DNA from: a virus
Reading direction: 5' to 3' (one strand)
Length of the DNA: 64,000 bases
Virus record (IMG/VR): IMGVR_UViG_3300010399_000002
Span: 32,001 to 96,000 of that record
Below, one piece after another: positions 2,166-52,658 of the stretch (its first letter is position 1; each line of letters starts with the position of its first letter). A program made the translations under genes and the position numbers. Under the pieces are notes generated by a model. It had not been told where the DNA came from and searched no databases. It saw only the letters and a list, made by a program, of their open reading frames with translations.

Positions 2166-2636
2166 TCACCTCGTATTTACAAATACCTCAACTCGAGCCT
2201 CCGCTACCTTCATACGATCTATCAATCTCTGCACCGCTACCGCTAACAACGGATGACTGATTCCTGTTTGGCTTTCGATGGCAACACTCGTAGCTGCAAT
2301 GTACTCGCGAAGTTCTTTCAACGGATTGCACCAAGTACCTTCACCTGGACGCTGACGGTGTTCCCAAAAGCGCTCACACTCAGACAGGAACTCTTCACGA
2401 CTTGGCAGAGACGTATCTGCTTCGACTCCATCACCAAGCACTGCATACAAACGATCATCGTCCAAATGACAGCGTTGATGACCTTTCTCACCACGATGTT
2501 CTTCTACAGCCTTGCGAAGAGTGATGAAGTCTTCGCACAACTTACTTAAATTTGGCCTCAGTATGGTAGCACCACGACCAACCCATTCCGACAACTCTTC
2601 AACTTGATCTATGGTAAACATCAAGACTCCTTCCAC
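2166..2636 (-). CDS. Hypothetical phage protein
   Basis: 156-aa ORF in operon orientation; RCHLDDDRLY..LP..EEFL..C.RF motif. Confidence 0.65.
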   Translation of the reverse strand: MEGVLMFTIDQVEELSEWVGRGATILRPNLSKLCEDFITLRKAVEEHRGEKGHQRCHLDDDRLYAVLGDGVEADTSLPSREEFLSECERFWEHRQRPGEGTWCNPLKELREYIAATSVAIESQTGISHPLLAVAVQRLIDRMKVAEARVEVFVNTR

Positions 2637-2836
2637 CTCTTACCGTGCCTGATCTCAGATACGTGACCTGGATTTAGATGAAGCTTTTTGGCCAATGCCT
2701 TCGTACCGAGATCACTCGTACGAATCATTTGTACCATTTCCAAATTTATCTTGGCACTCGGATTCCTTGCGCCTTTGTGTCTGTATGCCTTACTCGGCCA
2801 CGGAGACAGATTCACCTTAAAACCTCCCGCACGCAC
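2621..2836 (-). CDS. Small HTH protein resembling the C-terminal DNA-binding module of phage HNH endonucleases
   Basis: KGARNPSAKINLEMVQMIR..TKALAKKLHLNPGHVSEIRHGKRW. Confidence 0.55.
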   Translation of the reverse strand: MRAGGFKVNLSPWPSKAYRHKGARNPSAKINLEMVQMIRTSDLGTKALAKKLHLNPGHVSEIRHGKRWKES

Positions 2837-3797
2837 GATAAAGAGCGGACACTACCTTAACATGAAGTACAAAATCATCGGGTGCCCAAGCATTGGCTAA
2901 CTCATCGATACATCGAGCAACGTCGACAAGTTTAGCCGACGGCTTGGGATTCAACAGAATACTGCGCAAGTAACCCAAAGCTGCGGCCCGCAGCGCCTTG
3001 GCATCTTCTGCACTGGAATTTTGGATCTCGCGTCGAACTGCTGGCCAGTCACCTCGCAACATGGACTGACAAACTCGCAACGTATCAATCGCGCAATCTG
3101 TACCTCGTATCGCTGACTCTGGATCTTCACCGGCCGCGTACTTCTCAAGTGCATTCAACAACAAACCGGGAGACGAGAGACCTTGTTGATTAGCTTGCTC
3201 GATCAGCAACCCTATCTCGCGTTTCAACGAAATCTTATCGGCTGCGTACGTCAAGAACTTCTCTACGTCTGTAGGACGCAGCGCCTGCATCGTGTAGACC
3301 ATACAACGACGACGTAGCGTACGAAGGATCTTGTCCGGCTCGGTCGTGCACACGATCCAAACTGTCGTTCTGGGAGCTTCCTCAAAATACTTGAGTAACA
3401 GATTCTGTGCGGCTGAAGATATTCGCTGCGCTTCGTCAAGTATATAGACCCGACGACGAGTCGGAGATATAGGCGCATACTGCGATCCAACTGCTATCTC
3501 ACGAATGTCGTCGACACCGGATATGTCCCCGGCATTGATCTCATGGATCTGGAACTTACTGCTGTTCTTGAGACACAGACTGCACGGATCACCAAACTCG
3601 TTATGAGTGCAATTCAAACTCGTAGCTAGTATCCTGGCAATGGTAGTCTTGCCCGATCCGCTTTGCCCGATGAACATCCAAGCTCTGGGCATGCGTCCGG
3701 TAGCAGCCTGAGACTTGATGGCTGCAATAACCTTTGACTGGCCGTACAAGCCTTTAAATGATCTCGGCCTGAGAGATAAAGCTAAGACTCTAGTCAT
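2817..3797 (-). CDS. dnaX: Clamp loader AAA+ subunit, DNA polymerase III gamma/tau-like
   Basis: LRPRSF..LYGQ; Walker A GQSGSGKTT; LNC..PCSLC; EINA..GVDDIR; ILDEAQ; AQNLLLK..EE; TLRRRC. Confidence 0.92.
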   Translation of the reverse strand: MTRVLALSLRPRSFKGLYGQSKVIAAIKSQAATGRMPRAWMFIGQSGSGKTTIARILATSLNCTHNEFGDPCSLCLKNSSKFQIHEINAGDISGVDDIREIAVGSQYAPISPTRRRVYILDEAQRISSAAQNLLLKYFEEAPRTTVWIVCTTEPDKILRTLRRRCMVYTMQALRPTDVEKFLTYAADKISLKREIGLLIEQANQQGLSSPGLLLNALEKYAAGEDPESAIRGTDCAIDTLRVCQSMLRGDWPAVRREIQNSSAEDAKALRAAALGYLRSILLNPKPSAKLVDVARCIDELANAWAPDDFVLHVKVVSALYRACGRF

Positions 3798-3987
3798 TGG
3801 AATGAGGTGCTAGGTATCCTTTGGGCTCGTCCACCTTTGGCTTATTGTCTTCTAAACACGCATACACTAACAAACACAAAAACGAAAACGCCAGCCAATA
3901 CTCGACCCTAACCGGATAACCGTGTACAAAAGAACCTGCTAACGCTCGACTGAAAGCTGCAATGCCTAACCATCTCAAAGTGTACAT
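3790..3987 (-). CDS. Small membrane protein
   Basis: Two hydrophobic segments; fills the gap between adjacent genes. Confidence 0.5.
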   Translation of the reverse strand: MYTLRWLGIAAFSRALAGSFVHGYPVRVEYWLAFSFLCLLVYACLEDNKPKVDEPKGYLAPHSND

Positions 3988-5792: not shown

Positions 5793-7010
5793 CTATTTCC
5801 TCACCTTCTTCTTGACTACCTTCTTCTTGGGAGGCTCCTCTTCCTCGTCGTCTTCTTCCGACTCTTCTTCCGGTTCCTCTTCTTCCTCGTCCTCTTCTTC
5901 GTCCTCGTCCTTAGCTACCTTCTTTTTTGGCTTCGGACCGGGTTTCTTTTTCTTGGGAGGCTCTTCCTCTTCTTCATCTTCTTCTTCGTCTTCTTCGGGT
6001 TCCTCTTCTTCCTCGTCCTCTGACTCTTCGTCTTCCGGCTCAGGTTTCTTTTTCTTCTTTACTGGTTTCTTCTTGGACAGAGGCTCTTCCTCATCTTCTT
6101 CATCCTCATCTTCGTCTTCTTCTGGTTCCTCTTCCTCGTCCTCTGACTCTTCGTCTTCCTCCTCGTCCTTAGCTACCTTCTTTTTTGGCTTCGGACCGGG
6201 TTTCTTTTTCTTGGGAGGCTCTTCCTCTTCTTCATCTTCTTCTTCGATTTCTTCCTCACTCTCGTCTTCTTCTTCGTCTTCTTCTGGCTCAGGTTTGGCC
6301 TTACCTTTCACTTTCTTCTTGGACTTGTCATCTTCGTCTTCGTCTAAATCTTCGGTGTCTACATCACGACCGTAATACGCGGCCTTCTGCACTTCCTCGT
6401 CGTAGGCATCGATGAGATTGTCGATAGGCTTCAACGACGCCATAATGGTCTTCGGAACGGCAGACGGATCGTCGTCCGGCTCGATGGTCCCGTACCGAGT
6501 GTTCTTCCAATCCGTACCAGTACGAGACAGGTTGATATTGCGACCCTTCTTAGCATCACTGTAGTCCTTCTTTGTACTGGACAGCAAAGCCAACACCGCA
6601 GTACTGAGAGATCGAGCTCCGCCGGTGGATACAAACCAGAGCAACGGGCCGCGCCACTTATCGGAGGCCTGATCAAGATAGATAACTTGGACAACGAACT
6701 GTTCTTTCGGCGCGAGTGCTTTTGCGATATTGATCTTGGCCCGCTTCTTGGATTTCTCCAGTGCGGGAATGATCTCATCGCACAACCAGCACTCGCCTTC
6801 CTTGGTATCGAACTCCTTCCCGCAACGGGCCATCTTCTTATCCGGACCAACGTCGCGATGAACGAGATACTCTGTGTACGGGGCATATTCCGGCCCTCGC
6901 GGATCGGGAAGGATACGAAACGTGTTCTCTCCCTCAGTCAGTTTGTACGTTTTGCCTTGAGACTTCTCACGTACTCTGTCCTTCGCCTTGTCTTTCCAAC
7001 TACTGGCCAT
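5793..7010 (-). CDS. gp32-like single-stranded DNA-binding protein with a long charged low-complexity tail
   Basis: FRILP..H..C..C.LC zinc motif; GRNINLSRTG...TRY; position between UvsY-like and RecA genes. Confidence 0.8.
   Translation of the reverse strand: MASSWKDKAKDRVREKSQGKTYKLTEGENTFRILPDPRGPEYAPYTEYLVHRDVGPDKKMARCGKEFDTKEGECWLCDEIIPALEKSKKRAKINIAKALAPKEQFVVQVIYLDQASDKWRGPLLWFVSTGGARSLSTAVLALLSSTKKDYSDAKKGRNINLSRTGTDWKNTRYGTIEPDDDPSAVPKTIMASLKPIDNLIDAYDEEVQKAAYYGRDVDTEDLDEDEDDKSKKKVKGKAKPEPEEDEEEDESEEEIEEEDEEEEEPPKKKKPGPKPKKKVAKDEEEDEESEDEEEEPEEDEDEDEEDEEEPLSKKKPVKKKKKPEPEDEESEDEEEEEPEEDEEEDEEEEEPPKKKKPGPKPKKKVAKDEDEEEDEEEEEPEEESEEDDEEEEPPKKKVVKKKVRK
5911..6246. repeat. 258-nt-period internal duplication in the SSB tail
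   Basis: ttagctaccttcttttttggcttcggaccgggtttctttttcttgggaggctc occurs at 5911 and 6169 (PPKKKKPGPKPKKKVAK twice). Confidence 0.9.
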
Positions 7011-7032
7011 CTTGTCTGGTATTATCTCCTTT

Positions 7033-7233
7033 TCAACGTTGTCTTGCTAACTCGACTGTTACCTTACTGGCCTCTGTAACCGTGTAACCTTCGTTGTCAG
7101 TGAAATCGAGTGTTACCTCGACCAGATGATTTTCAACCCGCTCTTCCCACGTTGGTGCGGTGTCGCGAAACGTAACGTCAGCTGGAACCGTGAACTTGAC
7201 CTGCCGAATTACATCATCCTTACTGGCTGCCAC
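7033..7233 (-). CDS. Hypothetical protein (start probably GTG 7233)
   Basis: Strong GGAGGTGA Shine-Dalgarno before GTG. Confidence 0.5.
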   Translation of the reverse strand: MAASKDDVIRQVKFTVPADVTFRDTAPTWEERVENHLVEVTLDFTDNEGYTVTEASKVTVELARQR

Positions 7234-7237
7234 AAAA

Positions 7238-7660
7238 TCACCTCCCCCCTGAAGCAATATGTTCTGCACGTTTTTCTGAAGCAATCTTAGCCGCTGCTTC
7301 CCAACTGTTTGCCCAGATGGGCTCGACACGGTACAACAAACCTTTATACGTACCACCATCAAACTCGCTAGACTCAACCTCTATGGGCACATTCTCAACA
7401 TTCTCAATGTCCTCTTCATATTCCATATTCTCAACACGTGTACAACACGAGCCTTTAAGATCTGGTGGATAGATTATAACTCGAAAACATGCCTTGCCTC
7501 GCTGCACCCACGACGGAGTCTTATTCAACTTCCACACCTCAATGGCTCGATCGACATCGCCAAGCAGATTCATAAATGCCTTAGCTTTTTCTTCGTCATC
7601 GAAAATGCCCCGGATCTGGTAATCGCTGTACGAACCTTGCGTTACAACGTAGAGCTTCAT
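7238..7660 (-). CDS. Hypothetical phage protein
   Basis: MKLYVVTQGSYSDY.I.GIF; ATGA-coupled to the upstream gene. Confidence 0.65.
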   Translation of the reverse strand: MKLYVVTQGSYSDYQIRGIFDDEEKAKAFMNLLGDVDRAIEVWKLNKTPSWVQRGKACFRVIIYPPDLKGSCCTRVENMEYEEDIENVENVPIEVESSEFDGGTYKGLLYRVEPIWANSWEAAAKIASEKRAEHIASGGR

Positions 7661-8151
7661 AACTTGCCTCCCGGATACTTGGCCTTCACCTTCTTGCGAA
7701 GATTGGCCAAATTATCAAAATCGGATTCTTGCAAACGCCCGGCCATGGCGTTCTCAATACCCATGACCTCTTGCACAACTCGCAACGCGGCGGCTCGCTG
7801 CCTGTAAGCCTCTACCAGCAACCTGGAGAACTCGTCGTACTCGGTAGCAGTAGCTACTGCGGCATCGGCCTCTTTGTATTCCCGCTTACCGTATAGCCTA
7901 GCCTGAATCAAGCCTTCGGTTATTCGCGTATCTCCACCTAGAGCTTTCAGATTGGCCCGTATTCTAAGAGACAGAGACGCAGCCACTTCTTTCAAACGAG
8001 ACTCCGCCCGAATACGTTCTCTGAGCTTTCGCACACGGTACCGAGAGGCATTGATAAATAGACGCGGTTGTTCCTTAGCTGCGTCTACAACTCGCTCTTC
8101 GGAAAAATCTAATGCGTTGATTAGTTCTTCGAGATTGATCTTCGTGTCCAC
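7657..8151 (-). CDS. UvsY-like recombination mediator (helical)
   Basis: EQPRLF..YR..KLRE..RITEGLIQARL..EY..LVEAYRQR; context polymerase-UvsY-SSB-RecA; start adjusted to GTG 8151. Confidence 0.55.
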   Translation of the reverse strand: MDTKINLEELINALDFSEERVVDAAKEQPRLFINASRYRVRKLRERIRAESRLKEVAASLSLRIRANLKALGGDTRITEGLIQARLYGKREYKEADAAVATATEYDEFSRLLVEAYRQRAAALRVVQEVMGIENAMAGRLQESDFDNLANLRKKVKAKYPGGKL

Positions 8152-8188
8152 TGGACTGACTCGTTTCTTCGATGGATTTGAATTATAC

Positions 8189-8458
8189 CTAATTTGCCTG
8201 GCCCAACCTGCGTACCTCAGCAGCCAATTCAAAATTTGCCTGGCCCAACCTGCGTACCTCAGCAGCCAATTCAAAAGCATCCAATTCTGGTGCGGAGAGA
8301 ACTGCTACCACCACTCCATTCTTCGTAATAGAAAAGCACTTTCCCATCTGAGCCTGTAGCAGAATGTCACCTGGAGTACGACGAAAATCCATTGCTGTAA
8401 TGGTCTCTTGTTGCCCAGTAAGATCTATACTTTTAGTCAAAGGCTTTCTCATCTGCAA
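8189..8458 (-). CDS. Phd/YefM antitoxin-fold protein
   Basis: ETITAMDFRRTPGDILLQAQMGKCFSITKNGVVVAVL matches the Phd N-terminal pattern. Confidence 0.65.
   Translation of the reverse strand: MQMRKPLTKSIDLTGQQETITAMDFRRTPGDILLQAQMGKCFSITKNGVVVAVLSAPELDAFELAAEVRRLGQANFELAAEVRRLGQAN
8191..8274. repeat. Perfect 42-bp tandem duplication
   Basis: aatttgcctggcccaacctgcgtacctcagcagccaattcaa twice, encoding FELAAEVRRLGQAN twice. Confidence 0.95.
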
Positions 8459-8462
8459 CTCC

Positions 8463-11138
8463 TTAGTTTGCTGTTAGTCCGTATCTGTTCTTCGGATCAT
8501 ATCTCTTCATCACAGCGGCATCGACTTCTTCATTCTTTTTCAACCAGGACTGAACAAAGTCTTGGGGAGACTCACCTTTGTAATTGACCATAGAACCGAG
8601 CCTGAATCCGGCCTTGGCTTCGGCTGCTAATGGAACTGACAACTCAAAGCCAAACAACTTCTTGACCTGTCTCGGAACCTCATCTGCCATCAGCGACATA
8701 CACAACGGATGTACCTCGGGCAGGTCCGCGGCTGATACAAAGAAATACAACGCATCGTGTATCTCCATCGACAGTTCCTGCAAGAGACGATACGTAACTG
8801 GAAGCTTGTGTAACAACGCCATAGCCATCAACACTAACTGATGAGCTGAGCCCTGAACTGGAGAATTGATAGCTTGATTACCCCAGAACGTACCGCGATC
8901 TTCACCGCCCACCTCTCTACGGAAACCAAACATGGTCTCAACATAGCCGTGACGTTCTGCAAACTCTCGCTGAGACTCTTGGAAGTCTCGAACACCTTTG
9001 TACTTTACAAAATAGGCACGATGTAGTTCTTTTACACGCTGATCAGAAACATCCTTGACACCCTTAGCTCGCAGATAGTCTGGTAATCCGTCTTCTCCCA
9101 GACCGAAAATGATACCGAAGTGCATGTTCTTGATGAGACGGCGGATACCTTCATCGTGGCGGATCTTTTCAACTGGCCAACCCGTCAACGTATGTCCAAC
9201 CTGAGAATGAATATCTTGTCCGGACCGAAGTTGGCTGATCAACAACTTGTCTTGCGACATGTGGGCTAAGACTCGTACCTCAATTTGACTGTAGTCTGCC
9301 CCATACATGACCTTCAGTCTTTTGTAGGCATTGAAATTCTTAAACAGGTACGCCCACTTCGGATCTGATACAAGCAGGTTCTTCAACAGAGGATCGTTGT
9401 GCAAGTTCTGCATGTTCACGATCCCCAAATCGTCTCGCTCCGAACCTCCCGATCGCAGTCGCCCAGTAATAGCACCTGTCAGCCACCAAATGGTCCGCAA
9501 TCGACCTTCATACGTATCGGCGGATAACTTGTAGCCGTCGAGATACGTACTGTCCATTTTCGACATACGGCGCCACTCAGTCTCTTTAGCTGGAAACTTG
9601 TGGTGCTCTGCTAGCAACTCCAAAGTCTCTTTGGCTGTTGTCCTCGTTGGCTTCCTAAGGTACCTCCCTAATTTCAATTTATCGTACACGACCTTCGCTA
9701 CTTGTGGTGGAGAACCTGGATTGAAATCTGGATCTCCGGCAATCAACTTCAACTGAGACTCGAGCCTTTCCAATCTGGTTGGTATAACCTTCTTAACGCG
9801 CTTCCAGTATGAGTAGTCCAAAAATGGACCTTTTGACTCTGCGGCACTCAACACGTACGCACAATGGATATACACCTGAAGCAATGGAAGACTGATCTTC
9901 TTTTCTGTGGTCTTCTCTACCCGCTTACACAAATCGTTGTCTGCACAGTTGTAGGGCGTTAGTACATGGGGCGGAATGCGTCCAAAGTCGACATCCTTAT
10001 CATCTTTGCCTTTGGCATACGGAGCTACGATGTCTTTATAACCGGCGAACGCGGGAAACCTGACTTTGGCGATCTCGGCTAGACCAAATTTCCTGCGATG
10101 GGGATACCTCAAATACTCGGCATAGTTCGTATCGTACGTGTATCCTCGAGTCTTCAACCCGAGCATCTCTTTGTACTTCTGCGTATCTGACGACCCGTAA
10201 TGGAAGATCTTCTCCACCTTCGGATCTTCTAGAAACTTGCCAAAGTACTCGATACGCCGATCTCGTTCTTGATCTGAGATATGTATCTTGTCGTGGGCAA
10301 AGTAAACTGTACGGGCATAACCTGGTTGGTAGCAGAAGCCTGTACAAAGTACTTGATGCCTGCCGTGAGCTTTGCCGTCTTCTTCGTCGTTGGCAACTCG
10401 CTGGCCGCTAGCTGCTGCCTTTTCAAGGAACTCTTTCAACTCGATGGCTGAATCTAATGACCCGTAGTCTTGAGCTTCAACGAAACTATAGCGTCCGGGA
10501 TTGCCAGCGAACTCGGCTACAGCTCGGAGCCTCGTACGGAACTCATCTAGCCTGGACTTGGTAGCTCCACCTCGCAAGAAAAAGGCCGGATGGTCTGCAC
10601 ATACTACCTTGGCTTTTAAGCGTGCTGACCAAAAGATGGGATTGTCTTTGCGGTACTCCTTGCCAAGCAAAGCTCTGGCTGCAACCTGACCTAGAACTAG
10701 ATGGACTACTGCTTCGGATCTCTTGAGTGCCTGTTGCGTATGGTAAGCACAGTGCTTGATCTCGTCGTTGGTAGGTGGTCTGTCTTTAAGACGACCATCA
10801 TCGTCCGTAACTGTTGGCCAGCACCTAACAACGTTCTGGACATCACAATCCGGACGCTGAATGCCCGCCTTGCCCATCTCTTCCCAAAACCATTTTCCGG
10901 ACGGGCCTATCAACTCGATTTGATTCTTGTTCTCGATGTAACCTGGAGCTTGTGCCCAGACAAAGATCTTTCGTCCTTTGACCTTCTTGAGATTGATGAC
11001 TTTGAAAATTCCGGGCTGTTGGTCTAATGGACAACCTTTGCAACCAAGACCTTGAAAGACTTTGAACTCGGATTTTTTCTTGGACGATGCTATCTCGGTT
11101 GTGGAACCGTCATCGGATAGCAGATTGGAGAATTTCAT
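8463..11138 (-). CDS. polA: Family A DNA polymerase with N-terminal family-4 UDG-like domain and 3'-5' exonuclease
   Basis: CKGCPL..AQAPG..E..GPSG..NVVRC.P..HPA (UDG4-like); TGRLRS; NMQN; ADYSQIEVRVLAH; K..HFG..FG; N.PVQG; IHDAL. Confidence 0.95.
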   Translation of the reverse strand: MKFSNLLSDDGSTTEIASSKKKSEFKVFQGLGCKGCPLDQQPGIFKVINLKKVKGRKIFVWAQAPGYIENKNQIELIGPSGKWFWEEMGKAGIQRPDCDVQNVVRCWPTVTDDDGRLKDRPPTNDEIKHCAYHTQQALKRSEAVVHLVLGQVAARALLGKEYRKDNPIFWSARLKAKVVCADHPAFFLRGGATKSRLDEFRTRLRAVAEFAGNPGRYSFVEAQDYGSLDSAIELKEFLEKAAASGQRVANDEEDGKAHGRHQVLCTGFCYQPGYARTVYFAHDKIHISDQERDRRIEYFGKFLEDPKVEKIFHYGSSDTQKYKEMLGLKTRGYTYDTNYAEYLRYPHRRKFGLAEIAKVRFPAFAGYKDIVAPYAKGKDDKDVDFGRIPPHVLTPYNCADNDLCKRVEKTTEKKISLPLLQVYIHCAYVLSAAESKGPFLDYSYWKRVKKVIPTRLERLESQLKLIAGDPDFNPGSPPQVAKVVYDKLKLGRYLRKPTRTTAKETLELLAEHHKFPAKETEWRRMSKMDSTYLDGYKLSADTYEGRLRTIWWLTGAITGRLRSGGSERDDLGIVNMQNLHNDPLLKNLLVSDPKWAYLFKNFNAYKRLKVMYGADYSQIEVRVLAHMSQDKLLISQLRSGQDIHSQVGHTLTGWPVEKIRHDEGIRRLIKNMHFGIIFGLGEDGLPDYLRAKGVKDVSDQRVKELHRAYFVKYKGVRDFQESQREFAERHGYVETMFGFRREVGGEDRGTFWGNQAINSPVQGSAHQLVLMAMALLHKLPVTYRLLQELSMEIHDALYFFVSAADLPEVHPLCMSLMADEVPRQVKKLFGFELSVPLAAEAKAGFRLGSMVNYKGESPQDFVQSWLKKNEEVDAAVMKRYDPKNRYGLTAN

Positions 11139-11246: not shown

Positions 11247-12362
11247 CTACTTCAATTTCTTGGCCATGATTAATTCTGCGTCTCCGGCCTGCAAATGGAA
11301 CGCGCCTGTATCTTTGTAACGAACATCGATCTGCAACTTCTGCGTGGCTGCATATTGGACAAACGGTAAAACAAAATGCAACATCCACTCCCAATCGATG
11401 GGAGCTTTCAAAACAGACGCACTGACCCTTTCATTGAAACTACCTGCTGGTACGGCAGCCTCGATGGATAGAACTGAAGATTTGCCTTTTAAAGACTGCA
11501 CACGCAGCATTACATCTTGTCTCATGGTAGCTGCAACATAAGCAGCCAACCTTTCACTCACTCCGGCCAACGACGAACCGGATATAGACAAGATCTTCGG
11601 CATCTTACGAGCTTCAACCAGACGCTTCTGAATCTGCGTAGCTGGAAAGTTCTTAGCAGCCTGAACTGGAACGGTTTGTGCAATCTGACCGAAGCCGAAA
11701 CTAGCTACTACCACCTTACCGGTGAACAGTATCTCTTGCAACTGGTCGGCCTCTAGTGCCGACAGCATCCCTAACGGAAACGGGATGGTAACTGGAAATT
11801 TGCCCGGAGCTGAAAACACCGTTACTTGATTGCTGGTAAGAACGCAGGTCTTCGATACCAAAAAGATGCAATTCAAATGTGCTGCTGTTGGGTCGGCGGT
11901 AGCATACTGACTGGCTAATCGCATCAACTGACCTTGCTTCGACGTGATAGCCAACTTCGCTGCGTTCTTGATGGACGGCAAATCACCATAACCTGTAACC
12001 GGTTGACAGCCTTGACAATGTAGCGTACGCCGACCGGACTTGATTGTCAGTTTCCCGAACTGTTTATCGGCATCGAACTTAAACGTGATGGTTGACTCTG
12101 ACTTGTAGAAGTCTTTCATAACCAACACAAACGGACTGAGCATACCGCGGTCTACGAAGAACTCCCACTTACCTTTGTCGCCCGGACATGGTACTTGAAC
12201 TCGCCCGAGAGACTCGGCTGCCAACGACAGATACAACATGTTGCTAGCGCACTCCAAACGAATCATCTCCGATGGTAGAACACCGGACCTAGCTGGAACC
12301 AAACCTAGCACCTCGAGTGCTGATGCTAGTTCTTTGGACTTGACTGCGTTTACAAGCGCCAT
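11247..12362 (-). CDS. dnaN: DNA polymerase III beta-like sliding clamp
   Basis: 371 aa; L..AL..L..VPARS.VLP; HLNCIF; NFP; C-terminal LIM; co-occurs with DnaX. Confidence 0.75.
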   Translation of the reverse strand: MALVNAVKSKELASALEVLGLVPARSGVLPSEMIRLECASNMLYLSLAAESLGRVQVPCPGDKGKWEFFVDRGMLSPFVLVMKDFYKSESTITFKFDADKQFGKLTIKSGRRTLHCQGCQPVTGYGDLPSIKNAAKLAITSKQGQLMRLASQYATADPTAAHLNCIFLVSKTCVLTSNQVTVFSAPGKFPVTIPFPLGMLSALEADQLQEILFTGKVVVASFGFGQIAQTVPVQAAKNFPATQIQKRLVEARKMPKILSISGSSLAGVSERLAAYVAATMRQDVMLRVQSLKGKSSVLSIEAAVPAGSFNERVSASVLKAPIDWEWMLHFVLPFVQYAATQKLQIDVRYKDTGAFHLQAGDAELIMAKKLK

Positions 12363-12377
12363 TACTTCACCTCTCTC

Positions 12378-12746
12378 CTATCCACGTACAGTGGCTCCAC
12401 ATTCTCCATCTTCTGAGACAGTTACAAAGACAACGCTCTCGGTTACATTGCGTTCTACGTAGTTGAATATGATCTTGGCCATCGACTCGCAAGAATGTGA
12501 CAACACCCCGTTCTTTGGCCAACCAAACACACGATCGCAGTACGCCTTAATCCTGCGCTTCAGTATCTGGAACTCTACCTCTCGATCGTCAGCAAACACA
12601 CGTACTTCAACATGCACATGAAACATATGACGGTGTGGATGTTGTAGGTACTTGACCTCCGCTGACTGGTCTTTTTTGAGCTTGGTTACACCTTCCCACT
12701 GGTGTACGCCTTCAAACTCGCACGTAGCCCAAACTGTTGTTATCAT
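12378..12746 (-). CDS. Divergent QueD/PTPS-like T-fold protein
   Basis: F...H.W..YLQHPHRHMFHV..DREVEF..SCE.MA..V.VSEDGECG; two genes from folE. Confidence 0.7.
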   Translation of the reverse strand: MITTVWATCEFEGVHQWEGVTKLKKDQSAEVKYLQHPHRHMFHVHVEVRVFADDREVEFQILKRRIKAYCDRVFGWPKNGVLSHSCESMAKIIFNYVERNVTESVVFVTVSEDGECGATVRG

Positions 12747-12759
12747 TTAATCCCCCTTT

Positions 12760-13110
12760 TTAGTACTTCTTGCCTCCCTCAGCTAGTCTGGCCTCTGTTG
12801 TATGATCTTTACGAACAGCATTGAAAGCCATCTTGCGCTCGTAGATCTCTTGAAGATTGATCTCATACGCCCCGGCTACATCAAAAATACGAATGAGAGT
12901 ATCTACAAGCTCTACGTCGAACATCTTATACTCCGGCAACTTGTCATCCTGCAAATCCTTACGATGACCTTCCATAGCCTCTGCTAACTCGGAGACCATT
13001 AACATCAACATCTCTCCGACATTACGCTGCAAAGGCTCTCCGGTAGCTGGATTACGCCACCACTTTTCATTTGCCTCGTGTACTTCTTCTGCGTACCCAT
13101 TCAAATTCAC
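12760..13110 (-). CDS. MazG-like all-alpha NTP pyrophosphohydrolase
   Basis: LMVSELAEAMEG.RK..ELVDTLIRIFD..KM.FN..R. Confidence 0.85.
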   Translation of the reverse strand: MNLNGYAEEVHEANEKWWRNPATGEPLQRNVGEMLMLMVSELAEAMEGHRKDLQDDKLPEYKMFDVELVDTLIRIFDVAGAYEINLQEIYERKMAFNAVRKDHTTEARLAEGGKKY

Positions 13111-13739
13111 TTTCCACCTCCTACGTAACCTAGAAACTCAGCTTTCACATCTGGCTTCTTGAAGCAACCTCGCAACGCGGTCGTGATGGTTGTAGCCTGC
13201 GCCTTCTTAACCCCACGTACGCTCATACAAGTATGAAGTGCTGAAATACACGCGCCGCAACCTTTTGGCTGCACCACCTTTTGAAACACGTCAACGATCT
13301 GACTGGTTAAAAGTTCTTGCAACTGTGGACGCTTACTCAACACATCTATTAAGCGACCTATCTTGGACAGGCCTACGAGCTTTTTTCCTGGAAGATAGGC
13401 GAAGTGAACGTGTCCTATGAACGGCAACAGATGATGGGCGCACCACGAAACGAACTCAACGTCTTTAACTATGACCATCTGATCGTACTGATGATTGGGG
13501 AAGCCTGTCACCTTTGTTATAGAACTCGATAGAACTGAGGCTGGATCTGCTCCCAACCCCATAAGCAACTCGTCTTCGTACATGCGCACAACACGATTGG
13601 GCGTATCGGCGACATGGGGTTCTAATTCTTGTGGTGCATCTGCGAGCATTAATCGTAGACCGCGACCTACCACCAAAGACCAATGCGTCCCGTGAGTCTC
13701 AATAACACTACTTGACTGCACTTTTTCTTGTCTTGGCAT
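13107..13739 (-). CDS. folE: GTP cyclohydrolase I
   Basis: DTPNRV; SWCAHHLLPF.G; GLSKIGR; RPQLQE; HTCMSVRGV. Confidence 0.95.
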   Translation of the reverse strand: MPRQEKVQSSSVIETHGTHWSLVVGRGLRLMLADAPQELEPHVADTPNRVVRMYEDELLMGLGADPASVLSSSITKVTGFPNHQYDQMVIVKDVEFVSWCAHHLLPFIGHVHFAYLPGKKLVGLSKIGRLIDVLSKRPQLQELLTSQIVDVFQKVVQPKGCGACISALHTCMSVRGVKKAQATTITTALRGCFKKPDVKAEFLGYVGGGK

Positions 13740-14457
13740 TGCGTTTTACCGTTCTCCTCAGCATCTTAACCACACTACCTGGATACTTACCTACATCACG
13801 ATTTGAAACTCGAACAACCGCGTAACCTGCTGACTCCCACAACAACGTAGCCTTCACCTTATGAGCTGCGCCACAACTCTGATCGCACTCCAAAATAACA
13901 TTGTACTCCGGTAAGTAAAAATCTGCAATCAATCCTTCTAGCAGAACCTGCGAACTATATCTTATATGTAATACGTAACGCAGAATCTTACGCATCACAA
14001 ACTCAGTTGGTGTAGGCTGGTGGCGGCGAACCTTGGCGTTAGCTAACAAACGCCTTCGACGTATAACTGGATCTTGCCAAGACCTGCGACGACCTCGGGT
14101 CTGCTTGGTACGATAACCCGGATCTTTCCAACGTTCTTGATTAGCTGAACGTGTGTTATCTGCATACTTGACTCGACGATCTGGATTGTTTGCCCAGAAA
14201 CGTTTGGAATTTTCAGACTGCATGGAACGATGCTTACGTGAATGGAACTTCCTAAACCACCTTTTCTTAAATCTTGGATCGCTTCTAACCTTGTGCATAC
14301 TCTTTGCGTGCTTAGCACAGTACGCGGGATCTTGCCAACGAGCCTGCATACTAGCTGACCGCTTAGAAGTAACCGAACGTAAACTTTTAAGGAGCTTGGA
14401 TCTAGACTTCGGATTGGACCAACGAGCCTTCATGGCCTTAGACCTATCGTAACTCAT
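13708..14457 (-). CDS. Basic helical-repeat + Vsr/DUF559-like endonuclease (HEG-like A)
   Basis: W.DP.YR repeats, then PTPTE..IRYSSQ..GLIADFYLPEYNVILECD..GYAVVR; ATG 14457 overlaps the upstream stop. Confidence 0.75.
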   Translation of the reverse strand: MSYDRSKAMKARWSNPKSRSKLLKSLRSVTSKRSASMQARWQDPAYCAKHAKSMHKVRSDPRFKKRWFRKFHSRKHRSMQSENSKRFWANNPDRRVKYADNTRSANQERWKDPGYRTKQTRGRRRSWQDPVIRRRRLLANAKVRRHQPTPTEFVMRKILRYVLHIRYSSQVLLEGLIADFYLPEYNVILECDQSCGAAHKVKATLLWESAGYAVVRVSNRDVGKYPGSVVKMLRRTVKRNAKTRKSAVK

Positions 14458-15545
14458 ATCAGTCTCTCTAATGGTGCCCAACGGCAAGGCTGTCCAGACT
14501 CAGATATGCGCTTGAACGTAATTGCATTGTATATTGCTCGTGCTGGAATACTTCTGCGCAGCTCTTCAAAATCGAATCCATCCTTCTCCACCAGATCTCG
14601 CAAGAACTTGTACGTATCCTTGTTAAGCCCGTCCACTGTACCGTAGCCGCTACTCTTAGCCTCAGTGGTAGAAATATGAACAAGTGATATCCTTCTACGT
14701 GATGGTGCAGTAGTCACAATCTTACCGTAGGCCGCCGCCTTAATCCACGTCGTTGAATCGACACTCCAAAAAGGATAGTCAAAAGCAATTGGGCCAGTCA
14801 CGGCAAACCCGTGTAGTTTGATATTATACCGGTTTGCGCAAGTGAAGACCTGATCGTAATAGAACCTCACATCCTTGCGACTGTTCTTACCGATCTGATT
14901 CAAACCCAAACCCATGATCTTGTGACCTGCATCGGCGTACTTCTCGAACCAAGTAAGCGAATGATCACCATGGTACACAGGCACAGGACGGATACCCATA
15001 TCTTGCAGTTCTGCAGTAGCCTTCCAGATGGTAGGACAATGGCGGCGCCAATCAAACGTTACGTAGAAATCAAACAGACCTCGCGTGGCTCGCACATAGT
15101 CGGCATACAGCGACATGAACTGTTTGGCTTGTTCTTCGACACTACCCAAACGATCAACTTGAGACTTGCCACGAACTACCCCTTTACGATAGATGAGCGT
15201 ATGAAACGAGTGTGCTCCTGAATCGAGAAAAATCCGGTGCCCGTTGCTTAGACAGAAATTCAACGCATGGTAGTGTCTGCGATCGAAGAACGGAGCTGTA
15301 GCTGAACAGTAAGCGAAACTGATACAGCGGTACTTGTAACCCGTAGCTGCAAAAAACTTCTCTTCAGTCTGACCTTTTCCCGACAGCGTCCCGGACAGGT
15401 AGAAAATAGGCTTGGGATCTTTGACCGAAGTACCTGTCCAATCTGATCCTCCGACCCACTTAGGCTGAGTCTTGGGACCCTCCGGGAACGGAAAATTCGA
15501 TACGGACGCTTTTCGCCGTTTCGATAAACCTCCACTTTTTGCCAT
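14454..15545 (-). CDS. TGT-fold (DpdA-like) DNA base-exchange transglycosylase candidate
   Basis: IFLDSGAHS; YVTFD; PVPVYH; KLHGFAV; SVDSTTW; clustered with folE and the queD-like gene. Confidence 0.72.
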   Translation of the reverse strand: MAKSGGLSKRRKASVSNFPFPEGPKTQPKWVGGSDWTGTSVKDPKPIFYLSGTLSGKGQTEEKFFAATGYKYRCISFAYCSATAPFFDRRHYHALNFCLSNGHRIFLDSGAHSFHTLIYRKGVVRGKSQVDRLGSVEEQAKQFMSLYADYVRATRGLFDFYVTFDWRRHCPTIWKATAELQDMGIRPVPVYHGDHSLTWFEKYADAGHKIMGLGLNQIGKNSRKDVRFYYDQVFTCANRYNIKLHGFAVTGPIAFDYPFWSVDSTTWIKAAAYGKIVTTAPSRRRISLVHISTTEAKSSGYGTVDGLNKDTYKFLRDLVEKDGFDFEELRRSIPARAIYNAITFKRISESGQPCRWAPLERLI

Positions 15546-15948
15546 ATATCTCTTCTCTCCTGAAGCATCCGTAAATTCGATCTGCGTTCCCTTTCTTGCG
15601 CTTCACGAACTTCTCGAGCTCGACCTTGGTGATACCACCAACCTGCATACACAACTGAAAGCACCTGTAGATGATACTGCCCTTGCGAGTGAAAGGTATA
15701 GCTGGTTCTCCATTAACGGGTAAGATACCTTTGACGAATTGCACACAGATGGATCGATCTGGACAGAAACGACTGCACTCTTCTGCACTAGCATCATACT
15801 CCTTGGCAAAACAACATCTCTTATCTGCCTGCATTCGATTGTAGCAAACAAGGCAGACCAGCGTATCGACAAAGTACTTAGAAGACAAGATGTCCTCAAC
15901 GGAGTACTTCTTATCACAGATGAGACACTGGATTATTTTGCGACTCAT
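15460..15948 (-). CDS. Cys-rich zinc-binding / putative DNA-binding protein
   Basis: CLIC..CLVC..CCF..CSRFC..C; basic C-terminal region; start MSRKII. Confidence 0.55.
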   Translation of the reverse strand: MSRKIIQCLICDKKYSVEDILSSKYFVDTLVCLVCYNRMQADKRCCFAKEYDASAEECSRFCPDRSICVQFVKGILPVNGEPAIPFTRKGSIIYRCFQLCMQVGGITKVELEKFVKRKKGNADRIYGCFRREEIYGKKWRFIETAKSVRIEFSVPGGSQDSA

Positions 15949-16117
15949 ATCTCGTATCCATCTTTGTGTCTTTGTTCCAACCATCGTGCAACCGCACAAC
16001 AAACCTCATAGTAGGTGCCATCGTACTCAAACTCCGCCATCGGATATCCTTCATCTTGGTCGTCGTGGCAACTAATACAACAAGGCGGATGCCCTTCGAG
16101 ATCGCTACAACGAACCG

Positions 16118-16681
16118 TCACGCTCGCATCCCCAAAACTGTACGCATGTCGTCTGCGGTAACCTGATGTTGCTTGGCTAGCCTTCGGAACTCTCTCCGAA
16201 CGCGCTTGAACTTCCGGCCATGGGTAACCAACCGCCGTTCTCCGGTCAATACATTGGACAAGAACGATTGTAACTCGATTGAAGCCTCTACGTACAGATT
16301 CTGAACCAGTTCTTTTGAACAGTTGTACTCGAGCATGCGATGCTGACTGGGTAACGAGATCGTGTCTATATCTACTGTTGCACCTGGTGGTAGACGCTTT
16401 GATCTGTACATGGTCTCAAGATACGTTACAAAACAGTTGTCTACAACGGTCTGAACGAAGGTAGTGAACTTACCTCGACCGGGTTCCCATGTAGCTCGAC
16501 CGTTATTGGGATTCAAGGCACCCCACGCCCACATGAGTCCCATTTGACTCAAGTCTTCAACGTCGATCCACGACCGAAACTGTATGGGCAACTTTCGATA
16601 GAACGAAATGGCTCGCCCAAAAACCAACCTCTCATACTGTTCCACTTGTACCTCTGGTACGACTCGTTTTTTACGTGGCAT
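16118..16681 (-). CDS. Sigma-70-family factor-like protein (region 2 recognisable)
   Basis: IDVEDLSQMGLMWAW.AL..WEPGRGKFTTFV. Confidence 0.72.
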   Translation of the reverse strand: MPRKKRVVPEVQVEQYERLVFGRAISFYRKLPIQFRSWIDVEDLSQMGLMWAWGALNPNNGRATWEPGRGKFTTFVQTVVDNCFVTYLETMYRSKRLPPGATVDIDTISLPSQHRMLEYNCSKELVQNLYVEASIELQSFLSNVLTGERRLVTHGRKFKRVRREFRRLAKQHQVTADDMRTVLGMRA

Positions 16682-16693
16682 CCCATTCTCACT

Positions 16694-16945
16694 TTATTCT
16701 TCTAAAAAATAACCCGTACCTGGTTCTACTGCTATACAAAGCTTTCGTTTGCCGTGTACTACCTTATCTTGCTCCGCCTTAGCTGCAAGAATCTTAGCCT
16801 CTACTCGTTCCGGATGGTTCTCTACTTCTTCTGCTGGAAAAATTAGAATAGTGTACCCGGCACGATGTAAACGCTTACGCTCACTTACCGTCATAACACA
16901 ACCTTTCGCATCTGCAACAAACGCAGCTTCGCCTTGGACTTCCAT
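16694..16945 (-). pseudogene. Orphan C-terminal half of a DUF559-like domain (remnant or small gene)
   Basis: MEVQGE..KRLHRAGYTILIFPAEEVENHPERV; in-frame TAA a few codons upstream. Confidence 0.45.
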
Positions 16946-17598
16946 TGGCCTATACGAATTATCTTAACCGCAATATCTGGATGGTTAGAAACGTCGCGAT
17001 TTGAAATACGAATAACCGTGTAACCGGCCAACTCCCAAATCTTGGTATATTTACGCTTACTATCACTAAGATACTGGTCAACTTCTAGTATTGCATTGTA
17101 CTCTGGCAAATAGAAGTCTACGATCAATCCAACCAACAAAACTTGAAACCTGTACTTGATATTTAACCTTCGGAGAATGCGCTTGGTCTTTAACTCACTG
17201 GCAGTCGGACGGTGTCTATTTACCTTAGACTTTGCTAACATCTGACGATAGCGGCTCTTTGGATCTCGCCAAGACTGCTCTGAGGCTTTTGCTATCTTGC
17301 TACGTCGAATTGGAGACCTCAGTGCCTTAAGTAATCTTGCACTTACTGCAGGATCATTCCAAAGAGCTTTCAGACTTTTTCGCCTCTTTCTTTGCACTGC
17401 AGGACTCTGACCCGCCTGAAGCAGCCTGGCACGAGTCTGCGAATCAACCCACGACTGTCTGTGACTCTCCACCTGCCTATCCCTATAACTTGGATCTTGC
17501 CAAAGTTTACGAACGCTCTCTGACAACGTACTAGCCCTTTGTTTAGCTCGATACTCTGGATCTGCCCAACGCCTCTTTGCCGCATCAGATTTGTTCAT
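16891..17598 (-). CDS. Basic helical-repeat + Vsr/DUF559-like endonuclease (HEG-like B)
   Basis: RRWADPEYR, LWQDPSYR, LWNDP, SWRDP repeats; PTASE..IKYRFQ..GLIVDFYLPEYNAILEVD..GYTVIR. Confidence 0.78.
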   Translation of the reverse strand: MNKSDAAKRRWADPEYRAKQRASTLSESVRKLWQDPSYRDRQVESHRQSWVDSQTRARLLQAGQSPAVQRKRRKSLKALWNDPAVSARLLKALRSPIRRSKIAKASEQSWRDPKSRYRQMLAKSKVNRHRPTASELKTKRILRRLNIKYRFQVLLVGLIVDFYLPEYNAILEVDQYLSDSKRKYTKIWELAGYTVIRISNRDVSNHPDIAVKIIRIGQWKSKAKLRLLQMRKVVL

Positions 17599-17603
17599 AG
17601 TCT

Positions 17604-18581
17604 TTAAACCACACGAACACCTTCAAAGAACTCCCGTCTTGAAGCTAGCAAACTCGTCATCTCATAATCAGAACATAGACGAACAAATTCAAGATACCTT
17701 TTTCTCTTCTCGGCGTACGACATACACCTCAGCGTACCGCACTTGAGATATGCACGCAACTCGTACAGTTGCTTTTGAACCACCTCACGACAGTCTGATG
17801 GTAGCAACGAATAACCTGTATCTCGTGGAATGACCGCAAGCTGCCAACATTTGTGCACATTGTCCCAATGCTGTTCCAACTGCGGATACGCCTTCTTCAC
17901 CTGGGAAGTAAGTTTAGCAAATCTTTTTGTGGATGGAGTAACACCTGCTAGGATCATGGCACTAGCACGAGCCGGACCTATACCCGCAACTGACTTATAA
18001 TTATCACTGCTGTCCCCAGACAGAGCCTTGTACTCCGCCCATTGGTCTGGACGCAAACCGTGAGACTTGGCTAGATCGAAACTGGCAACAGCGACTGGAT
18101 TCTTGGGCAGTGGTCGAAGCACTCGTACCTTTTTGGAAATCAACTGGTAGAAGTCTGCATCTGTGGAGTAGATCCAAACACGGTTGACTGACTTGTGATC
18201 TTGGCACACCTGACTGAAGATACCTATGAGATCGTCCGCCTCGAGACCGTCAACCCTGAACTGCATGAAGCCCAGAACTTCGATGAATTTCTCTAGCACT
18301 GGCAACTGCATGAATACTACTGCTCGAGCTTCCTTTTGTTCTGGAGTACTCGCACGAGAAGCCTTGTAGGTACTAACGATCTTCTTGCGCCAGACAGATT
18401 GGCTGTCCCAACAGATGACTATCTCCGATGAGTACTTGGACATCAAAGCTCGAAGGCTAGACAAGAAGCCATAAATGATCCCAGTAGGAAAGGACTTGCC
18501 TTCAATTGTAGTACTGAGATTAAAAGCAAAACCACAACGATAAACTATGTTCATACCATCAACTAGTATTATGTCCTTCAA
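17604..18581 (-). CDS. 5'-3' exonuclease / flap endonuclease
   Basis: LVDGMN..YR; CWD; WRK...YKASR; EADDL; STDADF.QL; GDSSDN...V.GIG; TTG start with AGGTG Shine-Dalgarno. Confidence 0.93.
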   Translation of the reverse strand: MKDIILVDGMNIVYRCGFAFNLSTTIEGKSFPTGIIYGFLSSLRALMSKYSSEIVICWDSQSVWRKKIVSTYKASRASTPEQKEARAVVFMQLPVLEKFIEVLGFMQFRVDGLEADDLIGIFSQVCQDHKSVNRVWIYSTDADFYQLISKKVRVLRPLPKNPVAVASFDLAKSHGLRPDQWAEYKALSGDSSDNYKSVAGIGPARASAMILAGVTPSTKRFAKLTSQVKKAYPQLEQHWDNVHKCWQLAVIPRDTGYSLLPSDCREVVQKQLYELRAYLKCGTLRCMSYAEKRKRYLEFVRLCSDYEMTSLLASRREFFEGVRVV

Positions 18582-19369
18582 GCAACACCTCGTGAACGCA
18601 CAGAACTTATTGCCTGCTGTATAGTTGCAATCGCCTTGTCTGGATACTTTGTAACAGTATGATTACTGATTCGTACAACAACGTAACCTGCACGCTCTAA
18701 ACGCCTAGTCGCTAGACGTGTCCGCTTAGTCTGCTGCTGATCAACCTCTAACGCTATATTGTAATCGTACAGATAAAAATCGACTATAAGACCTGCAAGC
18801 AGAACTTGAGAATGATACCTAGTCTTCAAATTGTAACGAAGTATTCTACGCAGGCACTTCTCTGTTGGAGTAAGATTGCGTCTGTATGTAATTGCACGAG
18901 ACTGCAAACGCCTTAACCTAACAGACTCATCCTTCCAACTACTACGTAGACTTTTTGACTTGCGGGCCAACGTCTTAACGCCTCTACTGGCTTTGGCTTG
19001 ATTGGTGCGATAAACAGGATTAGTCCAACGTCTCTTTGCTGCTCTTGACTGTTTAATACGAACCGCAGGACTACTATTAGCTCGACTTAAAGCTGCGACC
19101 TGCGTTAGTCTGAACTGTGGATCTTGCCATAACTTTTTCATCTGAACTGATCTGTCTGCACGTACAATTGGATCTTTGTTTAACTCAATTGTTGCTTTAG
19201 CTTGCTTAGCTCTGTACTCTGGGCTCTGCCAACGCCTCTTAGCAGCACGATAGTTACTAATAGATCGCTTAGCTCGAACAACCGGATCTTTGTTGGCCTT
19301 CTGCTGCTTAGCTCTGTACTCAGGCCTTTTCCACTTTAGTCTCTGTGCTTCTGATCTGGTCACTAGCAA
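18578..19369 (-). CDS. Basic helical-repeat + Vsr/DUF559-like endonuclease (HEG-like C), inserted in the exonuclease 5' end
   Basis: Nine 13-21-aa repeat units; LTPTE..RYHSQ..GLIVDFYLYDYNIALEVD..GYVVVR. Confidence 0.8.
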   Translation of the reverse strand: MLVTRSEAQRLKWKRPEYRAKQQKANKDPVVRAKRSISNYRAAKRRWQSPEYRAKQAKATIELNKDPIVRADRSVQMKKLWQDPQFRLTQVAALSRANSSPAVRIKQSRAAKRRWTNPVYRTNQAKASRGVKTLARKSKSLRSSWKDESVRLRRLQSRAITYRRNLTPTEKCLRRILRYNLKTRYHSQVLLAGLIVDFYLYDYNIALEVDQQQTKRTRLATRRLERAGYVVVRISNHTVTKYPDKAIATIQQAISSVRSRGVA

Positions 19370-52040: not shown

Positions 52041-52658
52041 TCACTCGGCAAACCAACAATCATTACACGGCAGCGGTACTGTTGGAAGTATGGTCTTCCA
52101 ATCGATCTGTGGCTCTAACGGTGTAGCAGTTGGAATCCCCGGGCCTACGCAACAGCCGAAGAACTTCCCGTCGGCATAGGCGCACCCGTCAGAAATGAAA
52201 CACGCTCTCGAACACGGCTTACCTTCTGCCCGACGGATACGCGGTACAAAATTTGCTCCGTTTGGTCCGGCATTGTACATACCGACCTTCACGCCTCGAC
52301 CTAACAGTGCGTTCAACGCCTGGTGGTTATCGCCGTAGTCACTAAAGTCTACCCAGGTAAAATGTTCGACAATGGTATCCAAATGCGCTATCACCCGATA
52401 ACCGTTCGTGTTCATGGTCAGCGTCGTACAACCGAACAACTCTCTGAACCTCGGTACGAACTCAGCGAACTTCGGATGTGCTGTTGGTTCTCCACCTGTT
52501 AAATTGATGCGTTCGATGCCTTGCAACCATTTGGCAGCAGTCTCAAAGTACGACCAATCATGGTGGCCTAGCACTCGATTGATGCCTACACCCGCGCAGC
52601 AATCGGGACAACGCTTGTTACAATGCGTCGTCAGATCGAGATTGACTGTATGGATCAC
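52041..52658 (-). CDS. Radical SAM protein
   Basis: CNKRCPDC; LTGGEP; TNG; C-terminal Cys cluster (C..GCC..CNDC). Confidence 0.88.
   Translation of the reverse strand: MIHTVNLDLTTHCNKRCPDCCAGVGINRVLGHHDWSYFETAAKWLQGIERINLTGGEPTAHPKFAEFVPRFRELFGCTTLTMNTNGYRVIAHLDTIVEHFTWVDFSDYGDNHQALNALLGRGVKVGMYNAGPNGANFVPRIRRAEGKPCSRACFISDGCAYADGKFFGCCVGPGIPTATPLEPQIDWKTILPTVPLPCNDCWFAE

Follow-up and report, generated by a model that had tools for sequence, protein, structure and literature searches.

The 64,000-nucleotide stretch of DNA analysed here (hereafter the window) spans positions 32001-96000 in the record of an uncultured phage (IMGVR_UViG_3300010399_000002), a virus sequence of 114,732 bp with direct terminal repeats and a completeness rating of 100%. 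Between window positions 12378 and 15948 it carries a gene cluster, entirely on the minus strand, built around a transglycosylase-like protein of the DpdA type. Its genes, identified by homology and fold, encode, from upstream to downstream, a cysteine-rich open reading frame (ORF) of 162 residues (15460-15948, counted from an ATG at 15948 in a frame that is open to a TTG at 16002), a DpdA/tRNA-guanine transglycosylase (TGT)-like protein of 363 residues (14454-15545; phrog_887 'queuine tRNA-ribosyltransferase', 2.2e-26), the GTP cyclohydrolase I FolE of 210 residues (13107-13739; PF01227 2.4e-54, phrog_2197 4e-54), a MazG-like all-alpha NTP pyrophosphatase of 116 residues (12760-13110; phrog_5658 1.1e-47, phrog_3301 8.7e-17) and a T-fold protein of 122 residues (12378-12746; PF01242 E 3.3e-4, phrog_17812 3.5e-19). 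Directly after the T-fold gene, on the same strand, come a sliding clamp (11247-12362), which has no Pfam or PHROG match and keeps the assignment of an initial annotation of the window, and a family-A polymerase (PolA) with an N-terminal UDG-superfamily domain (8463-11138), recognised by Pfam and PHROG.

That initial annotation had singled out these five genes, reading the T-fold protein with its HPHRH as an atypical QueD, as a non-canonical deazaguanine-type cluster without QueE or QueC in the window. All five are present at the positions it gave, upstream of the clamp and the polymerase, neither QueE nor QueC is found in the window, and a role in deazaguanine-type DNA modification is supported by the results below. 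Its gene list had overlooked one member, a DUF559/Vsr-like endonuclease ORF of 259 residues (13708-14487, minus strand; PF04480 2.3e-7) that lies between DpdA and FolE.

The T-fold protein and the pathway genes of the whole genome

In the Cellulophaga phages phiST, phi19:2 and phi13:1, dG is fully replaced by 2'-deoxy-7-deazaguanine (dDG); these phages encode FolE, QueD, QueE, DpdL and a DpdA, with no QueC (Hutinet et al. 2023, PMC10516641). DpdL is a paralogue of QueD, proposed to act as a 7-carboxy-7-deazaguanine (CDG) decarboxylase, in which the signature LxxxHRHxF replaces the CxxxHGH of QueD, and it is also encoded by other phages that have DpdA, FolE, QueD and QueE and lack QueC (PMC10516641). 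At the CxxxHGH site of QueD the window T-fold protein reads YLQHPHRHMF (L34-QHP-H38-R39-H40-M-F42), so that the supposed atypical QueD matches the published DpdL signature exactly, with the catalytic Cys of QueD replaced by Leu and both Zn-ligand His retained. Because it does not carry CxxxHGH, the protein was filed as a DpdL, a family in which LxxxHRHxF occurs in 22 of the 23 members that we collected.

Similarity to named DpdL proteins extends beyond this motif. H15, S84-C85-E86 and E111-D-G-E114 are common to the window protein and the DpdLs of phiST and Acidovorax phage ACP17, as is the C-terminal EDGE(C/N)GA. The ACP17 protein is the closest named DpdL (33% identity, including a C-terminal VSEDGECGA; tblastn 2e-8), and the identity to phiST DpdL is 30% (tblastn 1e-4). 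PF01242 covers residues 34-121 with 21.0 bits, slightly below its cut-off of 22.4 bits, and a sequence search of the PDB returned only a non-significant PTPS match (E 0.67). By all the sequence criteria that define the family, the window T-fold protein is a DpdL. In Vibrio phage Bakedbeans (gp176, L009:8218-9369) and Chryseobacterium phage MA9V-3 (L010:8458-9339) the DpdL domain forms the C-terminal third of longer ORFs of 383 and 293 residues, respectively, whose N-terminal part has no Pfam match and may represent a fusion to another partner domain.

Two more genes of the pathway lie about 5-7 kb before the window start. QueD (genome 26565-27017) is canonical, with matches to PF01242 (2.2e-28) and TIGR03367 (6.5e-23) and with KCSRLHGH at the CxxxHGH site. 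The QueE homologue (genome 25046-25711, L004:9046-9711, minus strand) matches TIGR04322 (1.5e-19, spanning residues 9-220 of 221) and phrog_2076 (4e-20), can be aligned with E. coli QueE 6nhl over its full length (7.3e-15, residues 1-219) and recurs with 34-39% identity in three relatives, some of the QueC type described below among them. In contrast, a six-frame PF06508 search of the genome gave no QueC candidate, the same search being positive in 13 of 14 control genomes, and no ORF of at least 100 residues in the genome contains the SGGxDS PP-loop motif. The phage encodes a route to CDG but not the next canonical enzyme, QueC. The proposal of the initial annotation that genes outside the window finish the pathway therefore holds as far as CDG, which QueD and QueE reach, and fails for QueC, which is truly missing from the genome. 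With DpdA, FolE, QueD and QueE present and QueC absent, the genome offers the setting in which DpdL has been described, as does a complete relative, G003, and the cluster, not being non-canonical in the sense of an unfamiliar type, belongs to the published dDG gene set of FolE, QueD, QueE, DpdL and DpdA without QueC (PMC10516641). The same annotation had held that queE or queC elsewhere in the genome, together with a known modification, would speak against its reading; queE was found, queC was not, and the predicted product, dDG, is a known modification.

Two radical-SAM genes were considered as QueE and rejected, namely an ORF at window 52041-52658, which lies among FkbM methyltransferases and gave weak MoaA/viperin matches, and a radical-SAM/SPASM gene at genome 27982-28965 (327 residues, L004:11982-12965, minus strand), which gave weak MoaA/maturase/viperin matches; neither matched QueE. 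The SPASM gene lies just upstream of QueD, as does a gene for a weakly GT1-like protein of 429 residues (genome 29340-30629, L004:13340-14629, minus strand), with a RuvC-like resolvase and an ORF of 149 residues between them; no tie of this group to the deazaguanine pathway is evident.

The two named DpdL phages provide the closest comparisons. The phiST system has the same set of enzymes, with DpdL present and QueC absent, a DpdL motif of the same form and its genes directly upstream of the replicative polymerase. Unlike phiST, the phage studied here divides its pathway between two clusters that lie about 18 kb from each other, each broken up by a DUF559 endonuclease gene, and its DpdL is only 30% identical; in addition, its DpdA is accompanied by the cysteine-rich ORF, shows no BLASTP similarity to phiST DpdA3 (CGPG_00065; best E 0.13 over 59 residues) and belongs to the 9g-like family. 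ACP17, named as a DpdL phage with DpdA2, QueD, FolE and QueE (PMC10516641), likewise has its DpdL, FolE, QueD and QueE genes grouped next to replication genes, with no QueC annotated in the 18-kb stretch that we examined. It differs in being a T4-like myovirus, another type of genome, and in its 424-residue transglycosylase, a DpdA2 by its 36% identity to the Vibrio phage nt-1 region; this ACP17 protein served as the DpdA2 reference on our tree and showed no BLASTP relation to the window DpdA (E 0.2).

Relatives of the window DpdA show how DpdL and QueC are distributed on a common genomic backbone. A scan of IMG/VR with a DpdA alignment (A2) recovered 80 loci, where a single DpdA sequence as query had found none; genomic context was taken from IMG/VR loci at 29-39% identity, a set outside which the closest DpdA homologues (P0004, P0008 and P0016, 44-47% identical) fall. 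The 13 closest loci share the order primase, 5'-3' exonuclease, sigma-like gene, cysteine-rich ORF, DpdA, FolE, DpdL (in some), clamp and PolA. Whole-record searches of near-complete relatives found DpdL or QueC and never both: this genome (G000; 114.7 kb, terminal repeats, complete) and G003 (119 kb, complete) have DpdL and no QueC, and G001 (128.6 kb, terminal repeats, complete) and G002 (131.5 kb, 82% complete) have QueC and no DpdL, all four encoding QueD and QueE. Within 10 kb on either side of the 80 DpdA genes, 18 loci have DpdL only, 36 QueC only, 26 neither and none both (Fisher's exact p 4e-6, for rows that are related and not independent). The alternation is consistent and in line with the inference already published, with statistics that are neither strong nor independent. 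In G002, three genes that encode a second PTPS-like protein, a DUF5591 (ArcS-like) protein and QueC stand in a row (region L102, G002:98000-114000; ORFs 1871-2305, 2224-3150 and 3152-3832), and given the ArcS-like gene its DNA modification is probably an archaeosine-type system. About 3 kb further, an ORF of the same region (6925-8532) encodes a full Ro60/TROVE homologue (vWA_Ro60 1e-63, TROVE 3e-42).

The DpdA clade and its cysteine-rich companion

The AlphaFold2 model of the window DpdA, built on 22 homologues (pLDDT 85.4, pTM 0.86), superposes on tRNA-guanine transglycosylases with Z 18-19 and rmsd 3.6 over about 275 residues, and its Foldseek matches include 7ui4, the DpdA that inserts preQ0 into bacterial DNA. 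D108-S109 (DSG), D165 and D263 (S-x-DS) are invariant in the alignment of the 22 homologues (A2). In BLASTP the protein shows 27% identity to phage 9g DpdA over 247 residues (E 4e-19), and its H245 aligns with 9g His196, a conserved residue that is absent from DpdA2, the type of Vibrio phage nt-1 (PMC6884629). Pfam assigned no family to the 363 residues at E <= 0.01, and hence not PF20314 (DpdA4, DUF6610), in a comparison that included no DpdA4 reference directly; sequence and profile searches of the PDB found no relative.

The initial annotation had called for placing the TGT-like protein among the DpdA subfamilies. In a maximum-likelihood tree of 93 rows (quick search, LG+G4, SH-aLRT support only, root uncertain), with DpdA4 and bacterial DpdA compared through the Pfam and PDB searches only, the window DpdA falls inside a separate 17-member clade (SH-aLRT 90) of the 9g-like family and outside the clade formed by those DpdA1 proteins that have been characterised. 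Between the 17-member clade and the DpdAs of Seurat, Iggy, PSASB_03 and actinophages, together with a second DpdL-associated clade, lies a branch 0.54 long (support 94), and phiST DpdA3 forms a branch 3.65 long. The window DpdA is a divergent clade member of the 9g-like (DpdA1-type) family. Five alignment columns separate DpdL-type from QueC-type DpdAs of the clade (52 G/H, 71 K/R, 208 H/Y, 214 G/S and 266 T/S), in three versus two sequences, too few to interpret.

The DpdA1 (preQ0/G+) systems of Iggy and of the Queuovirinae phages 9g, Seurat and CAjan resemble the window in their homologous DpdA with an equivalent of His196 and in the layout of FolE, DpdA, clamp and DNA polymerase. Unlike the window phage, which has DpdL and no QueC, they carry a gene for QueC or Gat-QueC and place preQ0 or G+ in DNA, and their DpdAs sit in another tree clade, without a cysteine-rich neighbour, and are shorter by about 50-100 N-terminal residues. 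The 3' end of the cysteine-rich ORF overlaps the annotated DpdA start by 86 nt (15460-15545) in another frame; the overlap looks real because homologues support the long N-terminus of DpdA, and L011 has a similar one. The bacterial Dpd system shares a TGT-fold DNA transglycosylase with the phage. It differs in that the window DpdA has no sequence match to 7ui4, even by profile, and in that no DpdB or ParB-like gene stands beside it, a small cysteine-rich protein being there instead. Moreover, the bacterial system first inserts preQ0 and makes ADG afterwards, and its DpdA needs a second, unrelated protein for activity, the ParB-like ATPase DpdB, which is a precedent for an accessory partner (PMC10164549).

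The cysteine-rich protein has no Pfam or PHROG match, and we found no published counterpart. By tblastn, each of the 13 DpdA-clade loci encodes it, adjoining DpdA in 12 and 4.7 kb off in one (L018), and none of the 67 other DpdA loci does. Across 11 sequences (alignment A3) eight cysteines are invariant (C8, C11, C32, C35, C46, C58, C62 and C68), in the pattern CxxC, CxxC, C, C-x3-C-x5-C within the N-terminal 75 residues or so. In the AlphaFold2 model (pLDDT 79) the C-terminal 70 residues or so, an extension that this phage shares with L012 and L013, form three helices and a beta-hairpin. Foldseek against the PDB gave no match at E <= 0.001, and its weak rows (E > 1) are mainly winged-helix regulators over the C-terminal part; scores in a protein atlas were at chance level (0.80). 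A complex prediction of DpdA with residues 1-85 scored 0.00 against a mark of 0.32, a result with no bearing on binding either way. Because the 8-Cys protein is conserved and specific to the clade, its distribution suggests a working relationship with DpdA. A bolder proposal, which we put forward only as speculation and regard as doubtful, is that the protein, with two Cys4 metal sites or one metal site and an Fe-S cluster, and in this phage a winged-helix-like tail, would be an obligate partner of the DpdA clade and contribute DNA binding, the choice of sites or processivity, in the manner of DpdB in bacteria, and that the clade would accept a preQ0-type base or 7-deazaguanine solely according to whether the phage carries QueC or DpdL.

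Neighbouring genes and inserted endonucleases

Two genes upstream of DpdA, beyond the 8-Cys ORF, lies a gene for a sigma-70 region-2-like protein of 187 residues (16118-16681, minus strand; PF04542 1.1e-5), which is likely to be a phage sigma factor and keeps this position in relatives. FolE is directly downstream of DpdA in 13 of 13 clade relatives. The DUF559 ORF between the two in the window shares 34 nt with DpdA and 32 nt with FolE; in L012 and L013 no ORF of this kind separates DpdA from FolE, and the two genes adjoin. A second DUF559 endonuclease ORF (genome 25708-26595, L004:9708-10595, minus strand) lies between QueE and QueD and overlaps both neighbours by about 30 nt. With these ORFs placed exactly on the DpdA/FolE and QueE/QueD junctions, and the insert at the former lacking in relatives, the DUF559 ORF probably encodes a homing endonuclease of the free-standing kind that does not belong to the pathway. 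More DUF559 paralogues are found at window 16891-17598 and 18578-19369.

In 79 of the 80 related loci no MazG gene lies within 10 kb of DpdA on either side, and none was found in the whole records of five relatives, the complete, DpdL-bearing G003 included, in a search that had no positive control. The MazG-like gene is accessory and stands outside the conserved module. Because phiST has a MazG/dUTPase-like gene adjoining its DpdL, a tie to control of the nucleotide pool is possible by analogy. When the whole region was compared by blastn with 50,697 phage records, the single match was a 76-nt segment inside the MazG gene (about 12940-13015), with 80% DNA identity to gp06, a gene for a pyrophosphatase in Burkholderia phage BcepMu. 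Downstream of the clamp, PolA combines its UDG-superfamily domain (PF03167 3.8e-12) with a 3'-5' exonuclease domain, and the UDG-PolA fusion recurs in clade relatives as ORFs of 930-980 residues after the clamp.

The proposed route to dDG and its alternatives

Taken together, these data favour, with moderate confidence, a split DpdL-type system for 7-deazaguanine modification of DNA, with dDG as its product. FolE, encoded in the window, would convert GTP into dihydroneopterin triphosphate, which QueD would turn into 6-carboxytetrahydropterin and QueE into CDG, both of these enzymes being encoded outside the window. The later steps are modelled on phiST. In place of the QueC step to preQ0, DpdL would decarboxylate CDG to 7-deazaguanine, and the TGT-fold DpdA would then exchange genomic guanine for this base after replication, yielding dDG. 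Such DNA may escape host restriction, as dDG is expected to block restriction enzymes that read guanine N7.

Several points weigh against this reading. Decarboxylation of CDG by DpdL is a proposal never demonstrated for any member of the family; expression of dpdL and dpdA of phiST or ACP17 in E. coli gave no dDG (PMC10516641), and in the literature searched we found no later paper that settles the catalysis. The QueE homologue scores far under the NCBIfam equivalog cut-offs, and only the first Cys of CxxxCxxC is aligned, the second and third being absent at that place; C30 is followed by a 25-residue insert and then by C56xxxC60x5C66-DT, an unusual spacing for a radical-SAM cluster. dDG has been measured only in DpdA3 phages, and since the window DpdA belongs to another clade, with close relatives in phages that encode QueC, it may differ in its range of substrates. 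Phylogenetically independent contrasts of DpdL against QueC on the DpdA tree left five usable pairs, for which a sign test was not significant. Finally, a host QueC may supply the missing step, and a base modification cannot be read from the sequence itself.

The alternative that survives best, which we nevertheless consider unlikely, keeps the same genes and changes the base: DpdA could insert CDG (giving dCDG) with DpdL acting later on the DNA, or DpdL could make some other product derived from CDG or CPH4. The unproven chemistry of DpdL and the failed heterologous expression would be accommodated in this way, dCDG occurs naturally in Sulfolobus virus STSV-2, and insertion of CDG by DpdA3 has been considered by the authors who described DpdL (PMC10516641). 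The clade of the window DpdA is also found in QueC/ArcS-type phages, and its pocket should therefore accept bases with a 7-substituent. Against this, all DpdL phages analysed so far had dDG, no CDG was detected in phiST DNA, and the DpdL model of the same authors favours the free base as substrate (PMC10516641).

Reliance on the host, an option that the initial annotation had also raised and by which a host QueC would turn CDG boosted by the phage into preQ0 for insertion by DpdA (giving dPreQ0, as in CAjan or Rosebush) and DpdL would be auxiliary or unrelated, appears improbable. Most bacteria do encode QueC, as the 13 positive controls out of 14 genomes illustrate, the tested members of the 9g-like DpdA family insert preQ0, and the clade relatives G001 and G002 carry QueC. 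However, relatives of the preQ0 type bring their own QueC and DpdL-bearing ones never do, a pattern that fits replacement of QueC better than dependence on the host, and it would be unusual for a phage with FolE, QueD and QueE to leave one committed step to its host.

It is very improbable that the genes leave the phage DNA unmodified and serve instead host tRNA queuosine or folate metabolism, or that DpdA is inactive, even if some DpdA phages, such as Mycobacterium phage Orion, have unmodified DNA and FolE alone also serves folate synthesis: DpdA lies within the replication module, where it separates the sigma factor and exonuclease from the clamp and polymerase, an arrangement also seen in 9g, Seurat and Iggy, its catalytic Asp residues are invariant, and a full CDG pathway with DpdL has been kept in two complete genomes. 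We know of no enzyme of the TGT family that inserts a pterin, and QueD uses dihydroneopterin triphosphate directly. A pterin-like base derived from GTP, with MazG dephosphorylating dihydroneopterin triphosphate, as the initial annotation had offered from a window in which only FolE, MazG and the T-fold protein stand side by side, is the least credible reading, because nothing points to it other than the ability of T-fold enzymes to bind pterins as well as purines (PMC10516641), the same genome encodes QueD and a QueE that takes the pathway further than the pterins, the T-fold protein belongs to the DpdL family, found with QueE and without QueC, and not to the pterin enzymes, and the role proposed for MazG has no support from a gene so rarely present near DpdA in related loci.

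The favoured reading, a DpdL-type system making dDG, involves no new base and no new pathway. What is new is modest: a DpdL branch in a further phage lineage, with a divergent 9g-like DpdA in place of the DpdA3 or DpdA2 of published DpdL phages, a swap of DpdL and QueC on one genomic backbone, and a conserved 8-Cys companion gene of the DpdA clade. The DpdL (dDG) branch now extends to a clade of large uncultured phages with a 9g-like DpdA, in which close relatives with DpdL or QueC on the same backbone provide comparative evidence for DpdL as a branch-point enzyme that replaces QueC. FolE, QueD, QueE, DpdL and DpdA, with or without the 8-Cys protein, form a compact set for probing the proposed decarboxylase step, and the alternation of DpdL and QueC suggests that a single lineage of DpdA can be used with more than one deazaguanine base.

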